In this document: positions 4,846 through 48,636 of the stretch, piece by piece
Position numbering within the stretch: the stretch's first letter is position 1
How the letters are laid out: each line of letters starts with the position of its first letter
IMG/VR virus record: IMGVR_UViG_3300037805_000525
Span: 32,001 to 96,000 of that record
Strand: one strand, 5' to 3'
DNA: 64,000 nucleotides
From: a virus
Program-made: the position numbers and the translations under genes
Notes under the pieces: generated by a model
Databases searched by the model: none
Told to the model about the DNA's origin: nothing
What the model saw: the letters and a program-made list of their open reading frames with translations, nothing else

Positions 4846-5349
4846 ATGAATATCATCGTTAAGCATGTCTGCCATGTGCGCGACGAGTGCGACTGCGAAG
4901 GTCCGACCACCGACGTGGTGGTCGTGTTGTCCGTGCAGGATATCGAGGTCACTAAGGCGGCGTTCGCCGACGCGCCGTGCGCCATCCACGGAGCGGGTAC
5001 GGTGGCCATCCTTGAAGAGGTTGGCGCGCCGCTTCGCGATCAAGTGAGTCGCGCGGAGATGTTTGCGACTGAACTGGGCGTGTTCCAGTCGCGGGAGACG
5101 GGGCGCGCCTACGGTCGCGTCGCAATCACGTACCCGGGTGCACACCGGGAGTTTGTGATCGGCGCGCTCGTCGCTATCAACCCGGACGGGGGATACGGCC
5201 AGGCTACGGCACTGTGCAGGCGTGCGCGACTGTTCGATTTCCCTGACGTGTTCGAGGGTGAACTCATTGAGTGTGCGCACGCCGCAGGACTTCTACGTGC
5301 TGCAGGCGCCACCACCGTCATCTACCAGACGCACGTGGTGGAAAAGTGA
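4846..5349 (+). CDS. hypothetical protein
   Basis: strong RBS aggagg. Confidence 0.8.
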   Translation: MNIIVKHVCHVRDECDCEGPTTDVVVVLSVQDIEVTKAAFADAPCAIHGAGTVAILEEVGAPLRDQVSRAEMFATELGVFQSRETGRAYGRVAITYPGAHREFVIGALVAINPDGGYGQATALCRRARLFDFPDVFEGELIECAHAAGLLRAAGATTVIYQTHVVEK

Positions 5350-5864
5350 GTCGCGTCATAAACAGCTGGGTGTCGGGTGGGGCCAAGTGGTTCGCAATCT
5401 GGGACACGTCTTCGGACCGTCCGGTGACGCCTGCGTACACGAAGTCCGAGATGAGTGCTTACCTGCACATGCTCGGACCGTACGAGCCCGAGTACAGCCA
5501 CGCACACCCGGCCAACAGGATAGCGCGCGCGGCCGATCACGGTTCGTCGTCGCTCGTGTCCCGCAGGTGCGATATGCGTAAGAAGCACAAGGCCCTCGCG
5601 TTGGAATACCGGACGGCGCGTAGACAGCCTGCGAGCCTCAACGGCGAGATCGTTACCATCCGTCAGTTCGCTGAGGCATGGCACGACTCGTTGGTGGGCG
5701 TGACCAACGTGCTACTCGAGGAGACGCTCCTGGAGGATAGCGCCGTAGGACGGGGGCTGTACCGCAAGTCGTGCGAGTACCTGGCGTTTCACGAAGGGTC
5801 TCCGTCGCCGGTGTGGTGGCGTACGTTCTTCGGCCCACTTGACCAAATACAGGAGAAGAGATGA
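5346..5864 (+). CDS. hypothetical protein
   Basis: GTGA overlap start. Confidence 0.7.
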   Translation: MSRVINSWVSGGAKWFAIWDTSSDRPVTPAYTKSEMSAYLHMLGPYEPEYSHAHPANRIARAADHGSSSLVSRRCDMRKKHKALALEYRTARRQPASLNGEIVTIRQFAEAWHDSLVGVTNVLLEETLLEDSAVGRGLYRKSCEYLAFHEGSPSPVWWRTFFGPLDQIQEKR

Positions 5865-6355
5865 CTACGAAAGACCCGAAGTGCGGGCTCAGCCCCGAAG
5901 CGCGTACTGCAAGCCGGGCACACATCGTCGCCGTACAGGATGTGCGCATTGCGCGATCCGTCGAGAACCTCGTGAACGACGCAGATGCGCTCGTAGAGCG
6001 CTTGATCGATGAGTCTGTCCGCGCCATCGACACGTCCGTACTCCGTGCGCGGCACGCGGCCTGGAAGGACGCGCTGGCTGACCTCGTGAAGTTCACGGAT
6101 TCAACGCCGGGCTCGCCGTCCAGCATTGACTATGATTTTGCGAAGGCGCAGGAGCTCAGCGCTGAGGCCCGTTTCGCGTATGGCGTCTACATTCGTGAGC
6201 GGTACCACGTACAACGCCAGGCGGAAGCCATACGCGCCATTCGAGTGATTCCTGGGTCCATGAGTGTCGGTGCGGCGGAGTACGCCGCAGAAGCGACCAA
6301 GGCCGACTTCGCTCTCGCAAAGAAGGCATACCCGCGCACAAACGTCAATGCGTAG
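5861..6355 (+). CDS. helical hypothetical protein, paralog of 3063..3512
   Basis: RBS aggag, ATGA overlap. Confidence 0.75.
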   Translation: MTTKDPKCGLSPEARTASRAHIVAVQDVRIARSVENLVNDADALVERLIDESVRAIDTSVLRARHAAWKDALADLVKFTDSTPGSPSSIDYDFAKAQELSAEARFAYGVYIRERYHVQRQAEAIRAIRVIPGSMSVGAAEYAAEATKADFALAKKAYPRTNVNA

Positions 6356-6602
6356 CGGGTGGGGCTGCGTGGCGAAGCCTGAGGAGCTTGAGACGTACCT
6401 TGAGCGCGACATCGTGAAGGACCCATACTCCGGCAGTATCTACATCGCCGACAAGGGGCACTCATACGGCTCGTTCGCCAACGTGGCGCACTGCAAGGCG
6501 TTCATCGACTGGATGGAGAAGCCTGATCGGAGTGTGCACGAATGGGCCGAGACCGAGAAGCAATTCCTTACAAAAAAAGGAGGCCAAGATGACCGAAGTT
6601 AA
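6348..6602 (+). CDS. hypothetical protein
   Basis: fills gap in operon, ATG at 6348. Confidence 0.65.
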   Translation: MRSGWGCVAKPEELETYLERDIVKDPYSGSIYIADKGHSYGSFANVAHCKAFIDWMEKPDRSVHEWAETEKQFLTKKGGQDDRS

Positions 6603-6915
6603 GGAGCCGACGCTGCGTCGGCGGTACGAAAAGTGCAAGCGGTTGATCGATGCGGTGCGCTGGGGGTCGACCATTGCGGCGCTCTGCGTGCTCGGCGGGA
6701 TGTACGCAGCTGATAGTGGCTGGCGCGACATCCTCATCGTTGGGTTTGCACTTGGCATCGTGGAGCTGATGATTCGCGCGGCGTTGTGGCGGAAGCTCGC
6801 CAAGGAGCTGCTCGACAACGCGGTCTCGCTAGAGGACGTGCAGGCCGCGGCACGCCTCCTGACGGTGGAGCTCGTCAACGGCTCACATGGCATTGGGGTG
6901 CTGAAACCAGACTAG
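6589..6915 (+). CDS. small membrane protein (2 TM)
   Basis: RBS ggagg; two hydrophobic segments. Confidence 0.7.
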   Translation: MTEVKEPTLRRRYEKCKRLIDAVRWGSTIAALCVLGGMYAADSGWRDILIVGFALGIVELMIRAALWRKLAKELLDNAVSLEDVQAAARLLTVELVNGSHGIGVLKPD

Positions 6916-6973
6916 CTGGCCACACGGATAGCGGTTGCACTCGAGAGGCCTTCGGGTCGATGCAGCCGCGGGT

Positions 6974-7006
6974 ACAGGAGGGGGATTCGCCTCTTCTGTT
7001 CTTAGC
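6974..7006 (+). terminator. intrinsic terminator
   Basis: acaggaggg...cctcttctgt followed by tcttagc. Confidence 0.55.
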
Positions 7007-7048
7007 TGCGGCTGCCCTTTTCTTAGCCACAACCGACCCCAAATAGCG

Positions 7049-7076
7049 CAAAACGGGCCCCACCTATTGGCATAAG
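7049..7076 (+). promoter_or_regulatory. putative phage promoter
   Basis: caaaa-N15-GGCATAAG. Confidence 0.75.
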
Positions 7077-7123
7077 AACTATGTAGCGGAGGCACTTCGC
7101 ACCCACAAAGACGTAAGGAGTCT

Positions 7124-7591
7124 ATGAGCACCCGAAGAGAAGTTCTCCACGGGGACACGCTGAACCTTGTAAAAGCCGGCGCCTGCTTGTTCGCCCCCGA
7201 CGCATCGGAAGTTGTGGTCGCGGCCCTGTACGAGGACGGGACAATCGTGGCGTGTGGGTGCGCAAAGCGCGAGCGCGGTGTTGAAATCCAAGCTCTGTGG
7301 GCCGAGGCGTACCCAGACGCAGAAGTCGTACTATCCCGCGCAGAGGTGTGGAATGGCGGCATTGAGATCGCAGAGATCAAGCACTGCCTTGGCGACTCAG
7401 TTAAGACCGGCGCTCCATTGGTCGGACCAGGGATGTTCGTACTGATCGTGCACGCGACGCGGTGGCGCGTCGGATTCATAAGCACCTTCGGAAGCCGGTG
7501 TGCCGTAGACGCGCTGCATGCCCAGTTGGAGGCGTTGCCGTTCTACGTCAACGTTGATGTCTTCAGCGCCGAGGATTGGAACGCGGCGTAA
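7124..7591 (+). CDS. hypothetical protein with C-terminal 'WN-domain'
   Basis: RBS aaggag; PGMFVL...STF...SAEDWN. Confidence 0.75.
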   Translation: MSTRREVLHGDTLNLVKAGACLFAPDASEVVVAALYEDGTIVACGCAKRERGVEIQALWAEAYPDAEVVLSRAEVWNGGIEIAEIKHCLGDSVKTGAPLVGPGMFVLIVHATRWRVGFISTFGSRCAVDALHAQLEALPFYVNVDVFSAEDWNAA

Positions 7592-7607
7592 CCCACGTGG
7601 AGGACGC

Positions 7608-7796
7608 ATGCTCATCATCATTGCGCTCGTTGGCGGCGCTATGCACGCCATGACCGGCCCCGGGTTCCTGAACGGCGTTGCTGAGGTCGTACTGACCCTG
7701 GGAGCGTTTCAGGCCGCAATTGACGCGGGTACCCAGGCACACATCTTTAACAAGTATCTCAACGACAAGGAGGCAACATGTTCGAGAAGCCAGTGA
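7608..7796 (+). CDS. small membrane protein
   Basis: RBS ggagg; MLIIIALVGG hydrophobic N-terminus. Confidence 0.6.
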   Translation: MLIIIALVGGAMHAMTGPGFLNGVAEVVLTLGAFQAAIDAGTQAHIFNKYLNDKEATCSRSQ

Positions 7797-7999
7797 TTGA
7801 CCCAAGCCGGCACGCGGAAGGCAAAAACCCGATGACTGTCGAGGAGCAGGAGAATTTCGTAGACGACGCGTCCACTGCCTACCACGCGTACGGCGCGCAC
7901 ACATCTGACTGCCAGGCGTTTCAGAGCCATTACGGCCGGCGGTGCGACTGCGAGAAGGCTGGGTACGCAGCCCTGCGCCTCGCCGGCTACCCGGGGTAG
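7778..7999 (+). CDS. small His/Cys (possible Zn-binding) protein
   Basis: RBS aggagg; H..DC...RCDC. Confidence 0.7.
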   Translation: MFEKPVIDPSRHAEGKNPMTVEEQENFVDDASTAYHAYGAHTSDCQAFQSHYGRRCDCEKAGYAALRLAGYPG

Positions 8000-38200: not shown

Positions 38201-38978
38201 CCCCAAACATGTCTCCGGGCGACATGCCAGCGCCGCCGTACATACCCATGTTGGCAATCAGGCCGCCGGCCTGCTGCGCAGAGAACCCCATGGATTGCAC
38301 GCTCTGCAGCCCGGCGTACGCCTCCGTCGGGCTTGTGTTCATGATCATTGCCGCGCGTCGCGACTGCTCGACGATCTGCGAGAACCCAGACTGGAACGTG
38401 GAGAGCGAGCTTGTATCGATCTGCCCACTTCGGATTCCGCTACCCATCAGCTGGGTGAGCTGACCGAGGTTCGCGCCAGAGCTCGCGGACAGGCTTGAGG
38501 TAAACGCCGACATCTGCCCCACTGCGCTGTGTGAGGCGCGCGGCAGCATCCCGGAGATCTGCGCGTTGAGCGCCCCACGTTCTTGAGCGCCCTGCTGAAA
38601 CGGCTTGAACGCCAGCGAGTTGGCGGCGGCACCCGCGGCAGCGTAGCCTCCGTACGCGGCCGCACCGGCGGCTATACCTCCGGCCACACCCGCTGAGGCG
38701 AAGCCAGCCCGCCCTGCGGCGAGGGTGCCTGAGAACGGAGACAACATGCGCGGGCCGTGGCCAAACTCAGCCGCAAGCACGGCGCCCGCTGCAATGTAGT
38801 CGGGCGCGGCACCAGCCATGCGGGCGACGGATTCCTGCGTCGAGATAATCCCCTGCATTCGGGAATCTGTACCAGCTTCTGGTGCCCGGTCACCTCCGGC
38901 CATCTGACGGAAGTACGCATTCTGCTGGTTGATCAGCCTGGAGATTTCCTCAGATGAGATCGGCATGGTAGCTCCCAA
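35241..38978 (-). CDS. tail tape measure protein
   Basis: 1245 aa Ala/Gly/Ser-rich helical protein upstream of tube initiator and hub genes. Confidence 0.75.
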   Translation of the reverse strand: MGATMPISSEEISRLINQQNAYFRQMAGGDRAPEAGTDSRMQGIISTQESVARMAGAAPDYIAAGAVLAAEFGHGPRMLSPFSGTLAAGRAGFASAGVAGGIAAGAAAYGGYAAAGAAANSLAFKPFQQGAQERGALNAQISGMLPRASHSAVGQMSAFTSSLSASSGANLGQLTQLMGSGIRSGQIDTSSLSTFQSGFSQIVEQSRRAAMIMNTSPTEAYAGLQSVQSMGFSAQQAGGLIANMGMYGGAGMSPGDMFGAAQQGAAFGRATGSSPMRGALGAINQRAMFSQAMRGPENPGLRQESFGEFQGAASRFLGSRQGGTFLAAMMDPETGALDMSAARRASSGGMDGSEMRARAARNRAGNLDMFRSSRSELAGEYMSQFGAASTVHGIRGMTEGRANQSSEAQGLSGLSRTGLDQMSQYAASTSGLQARVKQAAMSGYREGTGNIGVGQMVSAIADQMILGPIRDKMRSVGSSVAQSVSEAVGSAEKSFTGGSYTPARFGGGQRAFQSALAREAAGVPNMSASSGGHVGGASIANTAATGIGAYVPPAMRLDSMSPGTSFTEFDNFGLTMPKHSMGMAVGATMLGASSMLGLNPIGRVGKMLSGVGQFGSGLSSGRQGLIRGTASMGFGGVRAAGAVLRGSGAIMKSRAFGLGAVGLNLALNSGPAIARWAAGESSANMPTITGRNARTTRFLDHTDRMDGGDGFLRKTDPEDHIGNQVSRIGMGDGFGRDTLDTAQEANMLKYERALKDDQDAALDAFGGPTAAADLVKRATRGTVTGEGAVDEIKRLHPKATGAQIARLLYATGAADKMGLTTSSRITDDGGLRSEIKKLDAMATYGALGKRNTGYDLASSRTISSAENDRANADQASSGGLTGSAKHTSQMQALYKHAAQNEGMSHLAALNTRLKTGDLSGPDVTEDQRARAISEVLARFKTGDLKGRKEIISGLATRGKLDMSELNTLSDAMLYVPAAEGTKRFAAQASDARGRYKSGLRRAAIVSGIDVDALAGGEYGDGVNPRETTRKFLDFGKRVQDEASRHGVTELYDAAEQLVNAGPEGAAAAGVLRRVAAAKAAAKGSKGNPLKYLSRLTGTQLSTMKRTMFTDSDDMDVLNKKDGQYTEKSEQGLRTMAEDHLRRAGMEPGDNQSLVSKLMGELRTSAQHAKSGDLTAAADALDLWTTTAEVQGSAGAATNTKMIEAKFDTFLKSLDAAGAHLRKFTGAEAEPGFVGRTLNMMTNVFE

Positions 38979-39273
38979 GTAGCTGGGCGATCTTCTCGCG
39001 CACCTTGCCGAGAACCTGTCGTGTGACGTCCTCGCCGTAGGGAGTCATGTGTGGGGCAAGGAACGAGGCCACCACCTGCTGCTTGTCTCCGCGCGTGCGC
39101 TTAATGACTGCGAAGCTGCCGTCGTGCATACGGACAAAGCTCCGCGGCTGTACGAGGCGTCCCGCCTTAGAAGCGGCCTGTACCTTCTGTCGCAGGTCCG
39201 CCAGGTCCGCGGAGCTTAGACGCGTTCGGGATTTCCGACGCTGCTCCTCGTGTGGGATCTTCCGTGTAATCAT
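38950..39273 (-). CDS. small basic hypothetical protein
   Basis: RBS aaggag. Confidence 0.65.
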   Translation of the reverse strand: MITRKIPHEEQRRKSRTRLSSADLADLRQKVQAASKAGRLVQPRSFVRMHDGSFAVIKRTRGDKQQVVASFLAPHMTPYGEDVTRQVLGKVREKIAQLLGSYHADLI

Positions 39274-39298
39274 CTCGACTCCTTGCGCGGCGCGTAAA

Positions 39299-39315
39299 TT
39301 ATCACAGCGTGATAA
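39299..39315. promoter_or_regulatory. 17-bp palindrome site 10
   Basis: TTATCACA-G-CGTGATAA. Confidence 0.85.
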
Positions 39316-39359
39316 TCGAGGCTCGTTCCATCCAGTTTAGGTGCTGCGCAACTCTCCGA

Positions 39360-39386
39360 CAAATAGCTACGTGCGTGTGGTATAAG
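39360..39386 (+). promoter_or_regulatory. putative phage promoter
   Basis: caaa-N15-GGTATAAG. Confidence 0.75.
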
Positions 39387-39392
39387 AATTTC

Positions 39393-39824
39393 GGAGCGAA
39401 AGGAGTTGCTATAGGCAATTTGTGCGTGGCAGCAATCGTTTTGAGACTGTTCCTAGTTACACCAGGCATGACGCCTGAGCACTGCGCTCAGGCGAATGAG
39501 GGTCACTGGCTGGGGCAGATAGTCTTGGGGTTGGGCGTTAAGCGCCCGGTACCTGGGCAACTCCAGAACGAGAAGCTGCGAGGACCTAGGGCGACGCCAT
39601 TTTTCGAGGGCGTCCCGACAAGTCCGCATGAGTGGTTGCCTGCGCCGAACCAAGGACATGCCCACGGACGTATTGTCCGGGACACAGTCCTCGAGATGTT
39701 CTGCCCAGGTACATATCGGTGCGTAAGAGCCTGACGGCCGGCACCACGCTTATGACGGCTACCAAGCACCCCCGGGCCCGGCACGTACATCGAAAGGTGC
39801 GTGCGCGGGCCCGTTGTTTTTTAG
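39393..39824 (+). ncRNA. candidate structured non-coding RNA (~430 nt)
   Basis: own promoter and terminator; no convincing ORF; many nested stems, including an 11-bp perfect pair 39549-39559/39702-39712. Confidence 0.65.
39773..39824 (+). terminator. intrinsic terminator
   Basis: cgggcccggcacg...cgtgcgcgggcccg followed by ttgttttttag. Confidence 0.7.
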
Positions 39825-39827
39825 CCC

Positions 39828-40637
39828 TTAGTCTTTGACGAGCTGCAGCGGCGCTGTCCGCGTACGCTCGGCGCACGCCTCCGTCGCGTCAAACGCCTCC
39901 ACAAAAGCATCGGTCATGATGTGCCGCATTGGGCGCGTCATAGCGGCGAACTGCTGCAATACGCCGCGCCCATCTAGGGAGTCGTCCATCGATCGTAGGC
40001 TGAGCAGCACCTTCTCGAGCTGAGCTTCTGCGTCCTTGTCTGAGAGGCCGCGCATCGCCATGATCTCGCTTACTGAGTCCGCAAGGTGTACGACGAGCGG
40101 CTTAGTCGCGTAGGCCAGCGTGGGGCAGTGTCCCGTGATCGTGTACGTGAGGCTTCGCACGCATTCCTCAGAATCAGTGCACTGGTGCGCTTCGGACGCG
40201 AACGGACCTAGCCCTTTGCCGCCAAGACCTGCGTGGATGCCGTAGGCCACGCACAGCGCGGCTATGGCTTTCAGCAGCTCACCGATCTCCTGGTACGGCT
40301 TTACCGCCCCGTAAAGCGCACGCAGGCTCGCGGGTGGAATCAGCTGAGAGAGTGAAGCTACGTCCTCCACGCTATTCCCGGACTTGACCCAGACCAGGAT
40401 CTTATTTGCAAGGTACGCGTTGTCTGCGTGCGCTGCTTGCCGCGTAAATTGGTCATGGCGGCATGCCGATGAAAGCGCGCTACTCACTGGTCGGGCGGCC
40501 ATGCCGAGTGCGGCGCACGCAAGCGCCTCAGCGCGCGCGATAGACGCGGCCATGACCGCGTAGCGTGCGTCGCGGTTCGCGATCTCGAGTTCCAGGTTTT
40601 CAATCTTGCGTAGTAGGCTTTTTGTATTTTGGGTCAC
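39828..40637 (-). CDS. hypothetical protein
   Basis: RBS aggagg, GTGA overlap. Confidence 0.7.
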   Translation of the reverse strand: MTQNTKSLLRKIENLELEIANRDARYAVMAASIARAEALACAALGMAARPVSSALSSACRHDQFTRQAAHADNAYLANKILVWVKSGNSVEDVASLSQLIPPASLRALYGAVKPYQEIGELLKAIAALCVAYGIHAGLGGKGLGPFASEAHQCTDSEECVRSLTYTITGHCPTLAYATKPLVVHLADSVSEIMAMRGLSDKDAEAQLEKVLLSLRSMDDSLDGRGVLQQFAAMTRPMRHIMTDAFVEAFDATEACAERTRTAPLQLVKD

Positions 40638-43885: not shown

Positions 43886-44622
43886 AAGCTACTAACCCGG
43901 TCGTCCAACCAACGAACCTGTGTATGTAGCGCCGCCTGTAGCGGCGGAGGCACGTTGTCGATCATGTAGTTCGTGGTGTTCAGCACACGCTTGAACTCGT
44001 CCCGCCGGTGAATCTTGCGATCTGCTGAGGCGGGTGTGTTCGGAGCGTCGTTGTCTGGCGGGTACGGGCGCATGTTCCCAGGTGTCCCGACCTCAAGGAT
44101 GCGACTCGACAACAGCGCGCATTGCGCTACGTTGCTCGCCGCGATGTCCGACTCGTCGCTGAACGAGTCGGTGACCTTACGTATCACCTTGGCCATGATG
44201 ATCTCGTCGAGAGAACGTTGCGTGCGTAGAGTGGCCCACAGGAACGGCTCGCCGTCTGGGCCGAACAGTACGGGGACGTCTTGGGTCATGTACCCAGACA
44301 TGACGTGCTCGATGAGCGAGAGTTCGCTTTCGATACGGTCTTCGGTTGCCGCCCGGTAGTCGGGGGTGTCGAAGAACGAGCCCGACCACTCGTACCCGGC
44401 GAACCGGTCGACTTTGGGAGCGTCGTCCTCTGCGGCCACCTCGGGCTGTGAGTTCAGCGCCTGGTAGTCCTCGACGAAGTCTGCGGCCTGCTCACGAATG
44501 TCGGCGCGCATCTTCCGCCCAGCGGGGGCTGGTGGAGCCACCTGCTGCGCCGGGTCGGGAGCCCGCTGCTGTGAGCGGGCCTTGACCTGTTCACGGATGC
44601 CACTCATCTTATCATCGCTCAA
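43843..44622 (-). CDS. putative tail assembly chaperone
   Basis: acidic 259 aa protein between tube and tape measure genes. Confidence 0.45.
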   Translation of the reverse strand: MSDDKMSGIREQVKARSQQRAPDPAQQVAPPAPAGRKMRADIREQAADFVEDYQALNSQPEVAAEDDAPKVDRFAGYEWSGSFFDTPDYRAATEDRIESELSLIEHVMSGYMTQDVPVLFGPDGEPFLWATLRTQRSLDEIIMAKVIRKVTDSFSDESDIAASNVAQCALLSSRILEVGTPGNMRPYPPDNDAPNTPASADRKIHRRDEFKRVLNTTNYMIDNVPPPLQAALHTQVRWLDDRVSSLWKSGVMHGTVKMS

Positions 44623-44975
44623 TTCACAACTCCGTCAGGGCCGGGTGCTGGTTCGGTGTTCGCCCATCGAACCCGGGCACTGTAGCACCCGCTGCAGGTT
44701 AGGCTGGGCCAATTGTAGAGTGCTGCGACATCGAGGCAGTCGCCGTAGTGCGGACAATCTAGCTCCCGGCTGAACTCGATTGCGTAGGTCGCTACGAAGT
44801 GGTCGTCGTCGGAAAAGATGAACGGCCCGACCTCAGCGTCCAGGTCAGCGTCCACTCGACGACGAACACCGTAGTAGCCCCAGATTGTGTTCACCGCGGT
44901 GGTTGGCTCGGGCATTCGACTCTCGCAGTTTGGCCGGAAAAGCGATTGAGGCGTGGATGATATACACTTCTGCAC
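44619..44975 (-). CDS. Cys-rich hypothetical protein
   Basis: DCPHYGDCLD...CSGC. Confidence 0.6.
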   Translation of the reverse strand: MQKCISSTPQSLFRPNCESRMPEPTTAVNTIWGYYGVRRRVDADLDAEVGPFIFSDDDHFVATYAIEFSRELDCPHYGDCLDVAALYNWPSLTCSGCYSARVRWANTEPAPGPDGVVN

Positions 44976-45013: not shown

Positions 45014-45040
45014 CAAACACACCTGTTTGTTTGGCATAAG
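45014..45040 (+). promoter_or_regulatory. putative phage promoter
   Basis: caaa-N15-GGCATAAG. Confidence 0.75.
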
Positions 45041-45150
45041 CACTATGCGTCAGTACTCGCACCCAGCGAGTCACGTTCCGTCAACAGCAGCTCTTGGTTG
45101 GAAGCCTACGGAGCTGCGCTGACACAACGGTTTAGTGCGCGGAGGATGTT

Positions 45151-45702
45151 GTGAAGCAACAAGCAATTCAGTGGGTGGACCTGAACGGGAATAGGTGGCA
45201 TTGCTCGGAGCATACGCCGCAGGTTGTGTCCAAAGGTCGCCGAGGAAACTTTCAGCCAATGTCCTGCGGGATGATGCGTCGGTGGCTGCGGTGGGTCTGC
45301 TCCGAGCGGATCTCGAACGAGGACATCGACAGCTGGTTGGTGTGCCCCCCGGTGCTCGGGCCGGGGGAGGTGTTCGACGAAGATGCGCTGGTCGCGGAGC
45401 GTACGGGGGACCCCGAGCTGTGCCGGTTCCTTGAGGACATGGTCCCGCTCGCAATCCAGCTCAGCGCTGAGGACGCGGGCATCTTCTACGACATCCCACG
45501 AACCGAGGCGGCCCTTTGCCTCATCGAGGAGGCGCTGCGGCTCCCGCACGGTGTTCGGCTTTCCTGGGAGATTCAGGGCGTCGATGCGACGGAGCCGCTC
45601 GGCATCCGTGTGCGGACCCTGATGGAGTCTTGGCCGGGTCTGAAGAACGGCGCTTTGGCGACACTCTTCCGATTGGGCGCCTTCATCATACCGGCCAACT
45701 GA
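45151..45702 (+). CDS. hypothetical protein
   Basis: RBS ggagg. Confidence 0.7.
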   Translation: MKQQAIQWVDLNGNRWHCSEHTPQVVSKGRRGNFQPMSCGMMRRWLRWVCSERISNEDIDSWLVCPPVLGPGEVFDEDALVAERTGDPELCRFLEDMVPLAIQLSAEDAGIFYDIPRTEAALCLIEEALRLPHGVRLSWEIQGVDATEPLGIRVRTLMESWPGLKNGALATLFRLGAFIIPAN

Positions 45703-46135
45703 GCAAGGGCCTCGTGTGCGTGTACATGTGCGCACCACGTGCCCACGTGGTGCGCGCACGCGCTCCCACCCGCATTAAACACCCCACAAAACCCCTAAAG
45801 GGTTTTTGGGTGTGTTTACTTTTATTGGCGTAGTTTGGCTAGGTAACTTGGGCACAAACCTACTATCCCGAAAAGATGTGGGTAGACTGGCCTACCGAAT
45901 GCCTGGGCGGACGCATCGGCGCGTGGATGTATCGGCGTGTGTGGATGCATCCACACACGGGTGCATCCACGCCCGCACGAGGGAAACTCCTCGCAGGGGC
46001 CTTCCGCTTGCGCTTGCGCGCACTTAGCACGTGCCCCTATTTGCGGTGCAAATAGGAACCCGCGCTTCTTTTTTTTCTAGTCGGCTTCGCCTCCAAGACA
46101 CCCGGCTGAAGCCCCGGAAACACAGGGATTTTTTA
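45703..46135. other. palindrome-dense non-coding region (origin or RNA candidate)
   Basis: perfect 24-bp palindrome at 45936-45959, four ggRyGyATC-like repeats, several further hairpins, AT-rich patches. Confidence 0.5.
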
Positions 46136-47385: not shown

Positions 47386-48636
47386 ATGTCCGACGTTGAA
47401 ATGACGACCGAAGAAGAAGCCGCCACCGAAATCACCGAGCTTGAGATCCCGCCCGAAGAAGAGCTGCTGCTCGTTGAGCACGGCACCGAGTGGATCGCGC
47501 TGGGCGACATCGACACCGAAACCTTCGTGAACCCGCGCGGTGACGTGGGTGATTTGACCGAACTCAAGCAGTCCCTCCTTGCCTCTGGCGTGCTCGTCCC
47601 GCTGAGCGTGGTGATCATCAGCCCAACCGGCATCCTCGACGAGGACAACCAGGCGGAAGCCGTACTGCTGCTCGACGGTCAGCGCCGCCTCGCTGCGATG
47701 CGGGAGCTCCACGACGGCATCAACGAGCACAACGAGCGGGTTGCCCGCGATGGCGGCTTCGACGACCTCGACAGCACGTACCTGTTCGTGGTTGACGACG
47801 GCAAGGGCAACATGGTGCCCAACCCCGACGTGATCCCGCAGGCGTTCTCGGAGCAGTCCTGCAGCGTGAGCATCGCGCGCGCCTGGAGCGAGGAGCTCCA
47901 GAGCGAGATGCTCGTGCGCGCAGCGCTCATCAACGAGAAGCGTGAGTCGATGACCGACTACGACCGCTACTGCTACGTGTGCCGCCTGTCCGAGCTGGGC
48001 ATGCGCCAGGTCGACATCGGCAAGAAGCTCACTCGCGCACAGGCGTGGGTGTCCGGCGCGGTCAGCGTCAAGAAGAACGGCTCCAGCGTGCTGATCACCG
48101 CGATCAAGGAGGGCAAGGTCTCGCTCCGTCGTGGCTTCGAGATCGCCAAGCACAACAAGCGCGAGCAGGCTGCGCTCGTCGCAGGCAAGGCGCCGGCGAA
48201 GAAGTCGACCTTCCGCTCAAGCCGTGAGATCTACGCCGACGTCGTGGCGATGAGCAACCCCGAGGCCTACGTCGATGTTGACGAGGCGCATCGCCAGATG
48301 ATGATTCGTACGTTCCGCTACATCATGGGCGATGCGGGCGTGACGCTCGAGCAGCTGATGTACCCGCCCGAGCCCGAGAACGATGTGGCCACGTCCACGA
48401 AGTCCCTGCTCGACCTGATCCCCGAGGCACGTCGTCGGGCGCCCAAGGCGAAGGTCACGCCCAAGAAGCCCGCAACGAAGAAGGCGCCGAAGAAGGCCGC
48501 GCCGAAGAAGGCCGCACCGAAGAAGGACGCACCGAAGAAGGTCGCCCCCAAGGCGAAGGCCCCCGCCAGCACTGCCAAGCCCGCGCGCCCTCGCCGGGCC
48601 GCGCGCCCTCGCCGGACCAAGCCCGCCGCTGAGTAA
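47386..48636 (+). CDS. parB: ParB/Spo0J-family protein with histone H1-like PKKA tail
   Basis: NPR...LKQSL..GVLVPL...DGQRRLAA ParB N-domain; NEKRE; HTH MRQVDIGKKLTRAQAWVS; KKAAP repeats. Confidence 0.85.
   Translation: MSDVEMTTEEEAATEITELEIPPEEELLLVEHGTEWIALGDIDTETFVNPRGDVGDLTELKQSLLASGVLVPLSVVIISPTGILDEDNQAEAVLLLDGQRRLAAMRELHDGINEHNERVARDGGFDDLDSTYLFVVDDGKGNMVPNPDVIPQAFSEQSCSVSIARAWSEELQSEMLVRAALINEKRESMTDYDRYCYVCRLSELGMRQVDIGKKLTRAQAWVSGAVSVKKNGSSVLITAIKEGKVSLRRGFEIAKHNKREQAALVAGKAPAKKSTFRSSREIYADVVAMSNPEAYVDVDEAHRQMMIRTFRYIMGDAGVTLEQLMYPPEPENDVATSTKSLLDLIPEARRRAPKAKVTPKKPATKKAPKKAAPKKAAPKKDAPKKVAPKAKAPASTAKPARPRRAARPRRTKPAAE

Follow-up and report, generated by a model that had tools for sequence, protein, structure and literature searches.

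We suspect, at a probability of about one half, that the 554-bp gap between two minus-strand tail-region genes of this phage (39274-39827) holds an RNA gene whose product would be non-coding, highly structured and about 430 nt long. The candidate unit inside the gap is embedded antisense in the minus-strand tail and tape-measure block, and it is headed by the same promoter and palindrome as the cassettes that lie on the plus strand. Throughout, the window is the whole stretch of 64,000 nt that was analysed, bases 32001-96000 of a 109,093-bp IMG/VR virus record with a CheckV completeness of 61%, and positions are counted from its first base (Table 1).

The contig comes from seawater metagenomes, has a GC content of about 61% and encodes a tail sheath, a baseplate wedge protein and a GpA-type large terminase (minus strand, L007:9868-11913). 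The phage is a large one of myovirus type and belongs to a little-known marine phage lineage. Among approximately 15 billion public proteins, the closest terminase is 58% identical and the second 50% (both from Logan contigs), and the terminase relatives in IMG/VR, many of which are fragments, reach at most 45% identity. Relatives of this GpA-type large terminase occur at 462 loci in IMG/VR and form a sizeable, poorly described group. Complete IMG/VR records with a related terminase are about 175-210 kb long, some of them with direct terminal repeats. Among the relatives from the search of public proteins, several also carry Pfam domains of the Hint or LAGLIDADG type (PF14890, PF14528, PF01079), a domain content that suggests inteins. 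In the phage studied here, DNA-metabolism functions are found among the plus-strand genes and the structural genes are on the minus strand.

Table 1. Coordinates of the candidate RNA unit, its signals, its predicted structural elements and the flanking genes, in positions of the window.
Feature	Position	Strand	Description
Flanking 107-aa gene	38950-39273	-	Adjoins the 1245-aa tape-measure-like gene and lies directly upstream of it; codon usage normal
Palindrome ATTATCAC-AGC-GTGATAAT	39298-39316	.	TATCAC-N3-GTGATA core (15 bp) at 39300-14
Open frame	39309-39734	+	141 codons open; judged non-coding
Bipartite promoter ACAA-N16-GGTATAAG	39359-39386	+	ACAA 39359-62, then 16 nt, then GGTATAAG 39379-86
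Predicted transcript, about 430 nt	39393-39822	+	Start about 7 nt after the -10, end in the U-tract; both ends predicted
5' hairpin	39393-39442	+	z -2.56; AAGGAG (39400-05) largely in an internal loop
84-nt hairpin	39443-39526	+	z -4.69; MFE frequency 0.33; 9-bp perfect apical stem 39472-80/39486-94
Short GC hairpin TGGGCGT-TAA-GCGCCCG	39532-39548	+	Pairs 39532-38/39542-48
164-nt domain (rod)	39549-39712	+	11-bp perfect closing stem 39549-59/39702-12, P = 0.96-1.0; z -4.33
95-nt arm inside the 164-nt domain	39602-39696	+	About 34 bp, near-continuous, with small bulges; z -4.35
Weak 3' hairpin GGTGC/GCACC	39718-39754	+	Pairs 39718-22/39741-45; z -0.70, no better than shuffles
Intrinsic terminator	39773-39822	+	Hairpin 39773-39813, then TTGTTTTTT 39814-22
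Flanking 269-aa orphan gene	39828-40637	-	T-tract of the plus-strand terminator ends 5 nt from the stop codon

Judged by the promoter and terminator signals of the phage itself, the candidate is a plus-strand transcription unit. The initial annotation had described it as bounded by a palindrome, a promoter and a terminator, and all three match signals that the cassettes of this phage use genome-wide. The palindrome core TATCAC-N3-GTGATA occurs in 24 copies across the 109-kb contig. The copy in the gap precedes the plus-strand GGTATAAG by 62 bp and, on the minus strand, the ATG of the 107-aa gene by 24 bp. Copies in the window are found, for example, at 746, 3974, 9981, 15260, 16070, 21639, 26159, 30076, 34762, 39300, 43694, 47288, 52518 and 61289. 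Where a GYATAAG promoter follows the palindrome, the spacing varies between 15 and 70 bp, and some copies are located within minus-strand genes or upstream of them. The window also encodes a stand-alone ParB-like protein (phrog ParB, 47386-48636); we take the palindrome array together with this gene to resemble a KorB/OB-type global regulon (as for KorB of RK2) or a parS array.

The core promoter motif, G[CT]ATAAG, has 23 plus-strand copies and a single minus-strand copy in the contig, for a chance expectation that we calculate at about seven per strand. Most of the plus-strand copies are intergenic, with a strong SD and a start codon within about 25-60 nt downstream. At the copy in the gap, ACAA stands exactly 16 nt upstream, as it does at the sibling promoters, and the downstream part of the promoter reads as an extended -10, TG-G-TATAAG (39378-86). 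Elsewhere in the window, a second plus-strand GCATAAG promoter was seen at 45034-45105, between the minus-strand genes 44619-44975 and 45106-45759. Neither an SD nor a start follows within 90 nt, and that promoter would transcribe antisense to a 217-aa gene.

About 12 cassettes on the plus strand end in a hairpin followed by a T-tract that finishes in AG or AC (TTAG/TTAC). The terminator of the unit, a 16-bp GC stem with one bulge and an 8-nt loop (about -33 kcal/mol) that is followed by TTGTTTTTT-AG, is the most stable of these (-33.6 kcal/mol; z -5.79 against shuffles). The same scan of the minus strand gave six weaker candidates. On the minus strand the terminator hairpin is followed by GGGGUGCUUGG, and thus it would stop plus-strand transcription only; the minus strand of the gap has no hairpin with a T-tract behind it. 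Given the weaker hairpins and the single promoter copy, the minus-strand structural genes must use signals other than the cassette promoter and terminator, and no conserved late-promoter motif is visible upstream of them. The unit, then, has the palindrome, the ACAA-N16-GGYATAAG promoter and the hairpin with T-tract and AG that characterize the cassettes. It lacks what the cassettes otherwise contain, namely a strong SD with ATG, GTG or TTG at 3-9 nt and the codon usage of the phage.

The predicted fold of the unit is exceptional. The minimum free energy of the 432 nt is -195.5 kcal/mol, compared with -164.8 +/- 5.6 for dinucleotide shuffles (z = -5.46), and 0 of 100 shuffles fold as well; this was one of the checks that the initial annotation had proposed. 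Without the terminator the unit still gives z = -3.43, and the two flanking coding genes, which served as controls, are shuffle-like (z -0.80 and +0.60). When 504 half-overlapping segments of 432 nt from the whole 109-kb contig were folded and their MFE was regressed on GC, the unit ranked second of the 504. The only segment ahead of it falls in the gap at 45.5-46.0 kb. After GC correction no stretch of the contig is more structured than this divergent gap (45545-46135; residual z -3.95), in which a 24-bp perfect palindrome, AT-rich patches and GGATGCATCC-like repeats occur together with a terminator on the plus strand at about 46069.

Approximately 69% of the bases of the unit are predicted to pair (148 pairs), and the helices that had been read from the sequence by eye were found where they had been placed. 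The nested rod described in the initial annotation is retained in its outer 11-bp stem and in its inner helices (39612-17/39678-83, 39618-21/39673-76, 39626-30/39657-61 and 39633-37/39648-52), but one of its proposed strands, CGAGGAC at 39579-85, pairs as proposed with a probability of only 0.055, and forcing this pairing costs 2.8 kcal/mol. In the thermodynamic ensemble GTCCTCGAGA (39687-96) pairs instead with TTTCGAGGGC (39602-11), with P = 0.92. The lower 17 bp of the 84-nt hairpin include six G-U pairs, which can form on the plus strand only. Complementary segments for a possible pseudoknot, CGTAAG (39722-27) and CTTATG (39749-54), are present as sequence. Behind the 5' hairpin comes UUUU (39439-42); together they resemble a weak attenuator, from which a short RNA of about 50 nt could also arise.

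Two properties of the fold limit how it should be read. Removal of the terminator changes the global arrangement, which leaves the local hairpins as the robust part, and the minus strand reaches equally good folds (z -5.85 and -5.36). Since both strands fold well, folding alone does not assign the strand; it is the promoter and the terminator that assign the unit to the plus strand. More generally, a good modelled fold of one single sequence is weak proof of function.

The alternative that survives best, although we consider it doubtful, is that the unit is a small moron-type or recently decayed protein gene of about 104-107 aa, read from the SD-like AAGGAG with ATA 39411 or TTG 39420 as its start. 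In the decay variant it would be a pseudogene whose ATG became ATA, and the RNA structure would then be that of an mRNA. The initial annotation had seen neither a convincing open frame nor a ribosome-binding site. The frame does look non-coding, but the AAGGAG at 39400-05 was understated: it lies 13 nt after the promoter, in the same place as the ribosome-binding sites of the other cassettes, and 104-107 open codons follow it in a frame whose overall length also speaks for a gene. The GC contents at the first and second codon positions (0.66 and 0.51) are similar to those of phage genes, a foreign codon usage is conceivable for a moron-type gene, and a distant relative carries four opposite-strand protein genes at the equivalent place (see below). 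Against this, no ATG, GTG or TTG lies within 4-12 nt of the SD in the open frame. The ATA follows the SD by 5 nt and the TTG by 14 nt, and ATG 39468 has no SD and is buried by pairing within the stem of the 84-nt hairpin.

Codon usage also argues against a protein. With the 30 longest genes of the phage as the reference, the codon score of the frame is -0.11, which is the 1.4th percentile of real 112-codon windows (0.255 +/- 0.144) and falls inside the null for shuffled open frames (-0.195 +/- 0.085), 15.5% of which score as high or higher. By our own arithmetic from these scores, the likelihood ratio is about 28 to 1 for non-coding. A crude SD-based set of small genes proved too contaminated for calibration of the coding score and was set aside. 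The GC content at third codon positions is 0.58-0.64 in the frame, compared with 0.74 in phage genes and 0.71-0.72 in the neighbours, and frames of at least 80 open codons arise in 47% of dinucleotide shuffles of the region. The region is also far more structured than the coding DNA of the phage. AlphaFold2 gave the 104-aa frame a mean pLDDT of 42.6, a value that says little for an orphan folded without an alignment.

Database searches with the frame point the same way. HMMER with the 107-aa translation found no match, and no self-hit, among 1.84 billion protein cluster representatives, a library built from gene calls that include the contigs of this phage. Both neighbour genes are on record in that library and the frame is absent, so no pipeline ever called it. 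Back-translated scans of JGI metagenomes, IMG/VR and 185,579 prokaryote genomes gave no relative of the frame either. Taken as sequence, the open frame looks non-coding and untranslated. On the opposite strand, a 96-codon ORF (39586-39876) is read in the -1 frame relative to the 269-aa gene, overlaps its last 16 codons and crosses the gap; it is probably spurious. We rejected a -1 frameshift of the tail-assembly-chaperone type (G/GT) here, because no X XXY YYZ sequence occurs in the last 24 codons of the gene and the codon score of the ORF is -0.23.

A cis-antisense or insulating transcript is a reasonable rival, if a rather improbable one. No minus-strand terminator is present in the gap, and thus the late mRNA probably crosses the unit on its way from the 269-aa gene to the 107-aa and tape-measure genes. 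The plus-strand RNA would be perfectly complementary to the spacer of this mRNA, and duplex formation or convergent transcription could lead to RNase III cleavage or to a block of read-through, so that expression of the tape-measure gene would be uncoupled or delayed. The position of the unit exactly between two late genes, its early-type promoter, the high structure of the minus strand of the spacer and the contrast between the clear plus-strand terminators and the weaker minus-strand candidates are all consistent with such a role. Unlike known cis-antisense regulators, however, the RNA has no overlap with the site where ribosomes would bind for the 107-aa gene or with the coding end of the 269-aa gene, and 430 nt of elaborate structure would be unnecessary for this purpose. 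Nor could late promoters be recognized by a conserved motif upstream of the minus-strand genes.

Less probable still is an element that acts as DNA, or a structure that acts in the minus-strand mRNA. In the first case the inverted repeats could serve replication, recombination or packaging, or they could be left from a former MITE-like insertion with 11-bp terminal inverted repeats; in the second, a structured spacer could shield a long untranslated late mRNA from Rho. The equal folding of both strands and the perfect 11-bp inverted repeats that bound the 164-nt domain are what such elements would predict. However, the promoter and terminator are specific to the plus strand and of the standard type of the phage, and in their nesting and bulges the repeats resemble RNA helices, with the six G-U pairs of one hairpin available to the plus strand only. 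The phage contains no second copy of the element, and the gap at 45545-46135 is a better candidate for a replication origin than the RNA unit is. A MITE in particular was rejected on the collections covered: among 185,579 genomes of bacteria and archaea, a scan for the terminal repeats gave four chance loci with unrelated interiors, and IMG/VR contained none.

Searches for copies and homologues of the unit returned only the unit itself. Apart from the palindrome, the 109-kb contig holds no second copy or complement of it, which argues against a DGR template, a repeat family and an antisense RNA that would act in trans on phage genes; a DGR or retron template was rejected on this ground. RNA duplex folding of the unit with 164 translation-initiation regions of the phage gave implausible energies with long loops and was set aside. 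Neither blastn nor megablast of the unit against 50,697 phage records found anything. Against 20 large related IMG/VR records, blastn of the RNA gave chance matches only (E >= 0.1), and a covariance model built from the single sequence of the 164-nt domain recovered only itself among 54 related records. Both neighbour genes are orphans: back-translated scans of IMG/VR with the two proteins found no relatives, and a word-based protein search with the 269-aa neighbour found only the query. The locus is present in seven seawater sequencing runs, none of which is an RNA library. In the four runs that were compared the gap is identical, and a single A>G change occurs at 40482, in the 269-aa gene.

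The surroundings of the gap can be compared over a greater distance. The tape-measure-like protein is common to four related large phages, at 31-35% identity; these phages have GC contents of 48-51% and little synteny. In one of them (L099, G017:C1:47000-60000, 4924-7850) there are four genes of 133, 213, 164 and 304 aa on the opposite strand. With the shared tail genes on one side and the tape-measure homologue on the other, they occupy the position of the RNA unit. The junction upstream of the tape-measure gene thus seems to be a hot spot for insertion that accepts foreign cassettes on the opposite strand.

From its sequence, the putative RNA belongs to no described RNA family. A search with the covariance models of Rfam 15 (4227 families), one of the checks that had been proposed for the unit, gave zero matches at the gathering score in the whole window and zero at E <= 10 in 39200-39900. 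The families covered include GOLLD, ROOL, HEARO, pRNA, riboswitches, ribozymes and marine IMES RNAs. Because Rfam E-values are multiplied by the 4227 families, the models for RNase P and 6S RNA were also run singly. The bacterial RNase P model (RF00010; P4 core, regions I-V) had no match in the contig at E <= 10 and recognized 11 of 14 control genomes. A resemblance of GGAG.GAAAG and GGUGCG.UAAGAGC in the unit to RNase P RNA did not hold up in the RF00010 test. ARAGORN found no tRNA or tmRNA in the window. The view that the unit has no tRNA, tmRNA or RNase P signature is thereby borne out. The functional suggestions of the initial annotation fare less well. The 6S model (RF00013) recognized the control genomes and, at E <= 10, nothing in the 109-kb contig, and the fold is without a large central bubble, so the idea of a 6S-like RNA fails. 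Nothing speaks for an anti-defence RNA, and a new class cannot be claimed from one sequence.

If the gap does hold a non-coding RNA gene, the unit would be transcribed together with the early or middle plus-strand cassettes for DNA metabolism, and a stable RNA would accumulate, its ends protected by the 5' hairpin and the terminator hairpin. This RNA may act in trans by its shape, binding or sequestering a protein or serving as a decoy or a scaffold. Given that about two thirds of the bases would be paired and that the 109 kb of phage DNA offer no complementary partner, a role based on shape is likelier than one based on base-pairing. We put forward this protein-binding mode tentatively, as one part of the RNA gene reading. 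A further step, which we regard as unlikely, is that the unit is the first-seen member of a new class of large (about 430 nt) phage RNAs, a kind of 'RNA moron' that captures host or phage proteins. Such an RNA would be switched on early or midway from the palindrome-associated promoter and would form a particle of several hairpins, which may capture a polymerase, a nuclease or a defence sensor during takeover. It would be an RNA counterpart of the protein factors of host takeover, mobile and carried in the tail module.

Only a small number of non-coding RNAs of more than about 200 nt are known from phages, and among them pRNA, GOLLD and ROOL have proved structurally remarkable. The present candidate is a clean one, in that its promoter, terminator and fold can all be defined from the signals of the phage itself, and it is a concrete target that could be synthesized, probed for structure and used in pull-downs at low cost. 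As a singleton, its value at present is that of a lead, and not that of a result or of a demonstrated new class of RNA. It also indicates that the cassette system of this phage, with its palindrome, promoter and terminator, can carry cargo that is probably not protein.

From the perspective of known systems, several comparisons can be made. The lambda-type transcripts OOP, PaQ and the PR'-tR' '6S' RNA measure 77-194 nt, and they overlap a coding or translation-initiation region of their target or precede an antiterminated operon. The unit is like them in having a promoter, a length of at most a few hundred bases and a strong terminator, and in lying between genes of a different temporal class or antisense to them. 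In contrast to them, it overlaps nothing, and only the antisense strand of tail genes lies downstream. Type I toxin mRNAs such as hok are about 400 nt long, very stable and highly folded, with a sequestered ribosome-binding site. The unit would likewise be a very stable, highly folded transcript of about 400 nt with a sequestered ribosome-binding site, and its candidate frame begins with a hydrophobic stretch. A hok-type mRNA is nevertheless not supported, given that the frame has about 105 codons and is not a short membrane peptide, that there is no antisense promoter and that no family matches.

The packaging RNA of phi29, pRNA, is about 120-174 nt long and is represented in Rfam. Like it, the unit is predicted to be a phage-encoded structured RNA that has its own promoter and acts as RNA and not as a message; unlike it, the unit has no Rfam match, is longer, and nothing ties it to packaging. 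With 6S RNA the unit has in common rod-like hairpin domains, a long closing stem and an independent transcription unit with a terminator. The differences are that the phage unit is more than twice as long, and that its 95-nt arm is near-continuous, with bulges of 1-4 nt, the only large loop of the fold being one-sided (39560-39601).

A last comparison is with ROOL, of about 580 nt, and GOLLD, of about 800 nt. Both are large structured non-coding RNAs of phages and prophages whose function is unknown (10.1101/2024.12.08.627333). They are families with many members and support from covariation, whereas the unit is a singleton of about 430 nt without an Rfam match. What the candidate would share with GOLLD and ROOL is that it is free-standing, several hundred nucleotides long, heavily structured and phage-borne, and without a known biochemical role.
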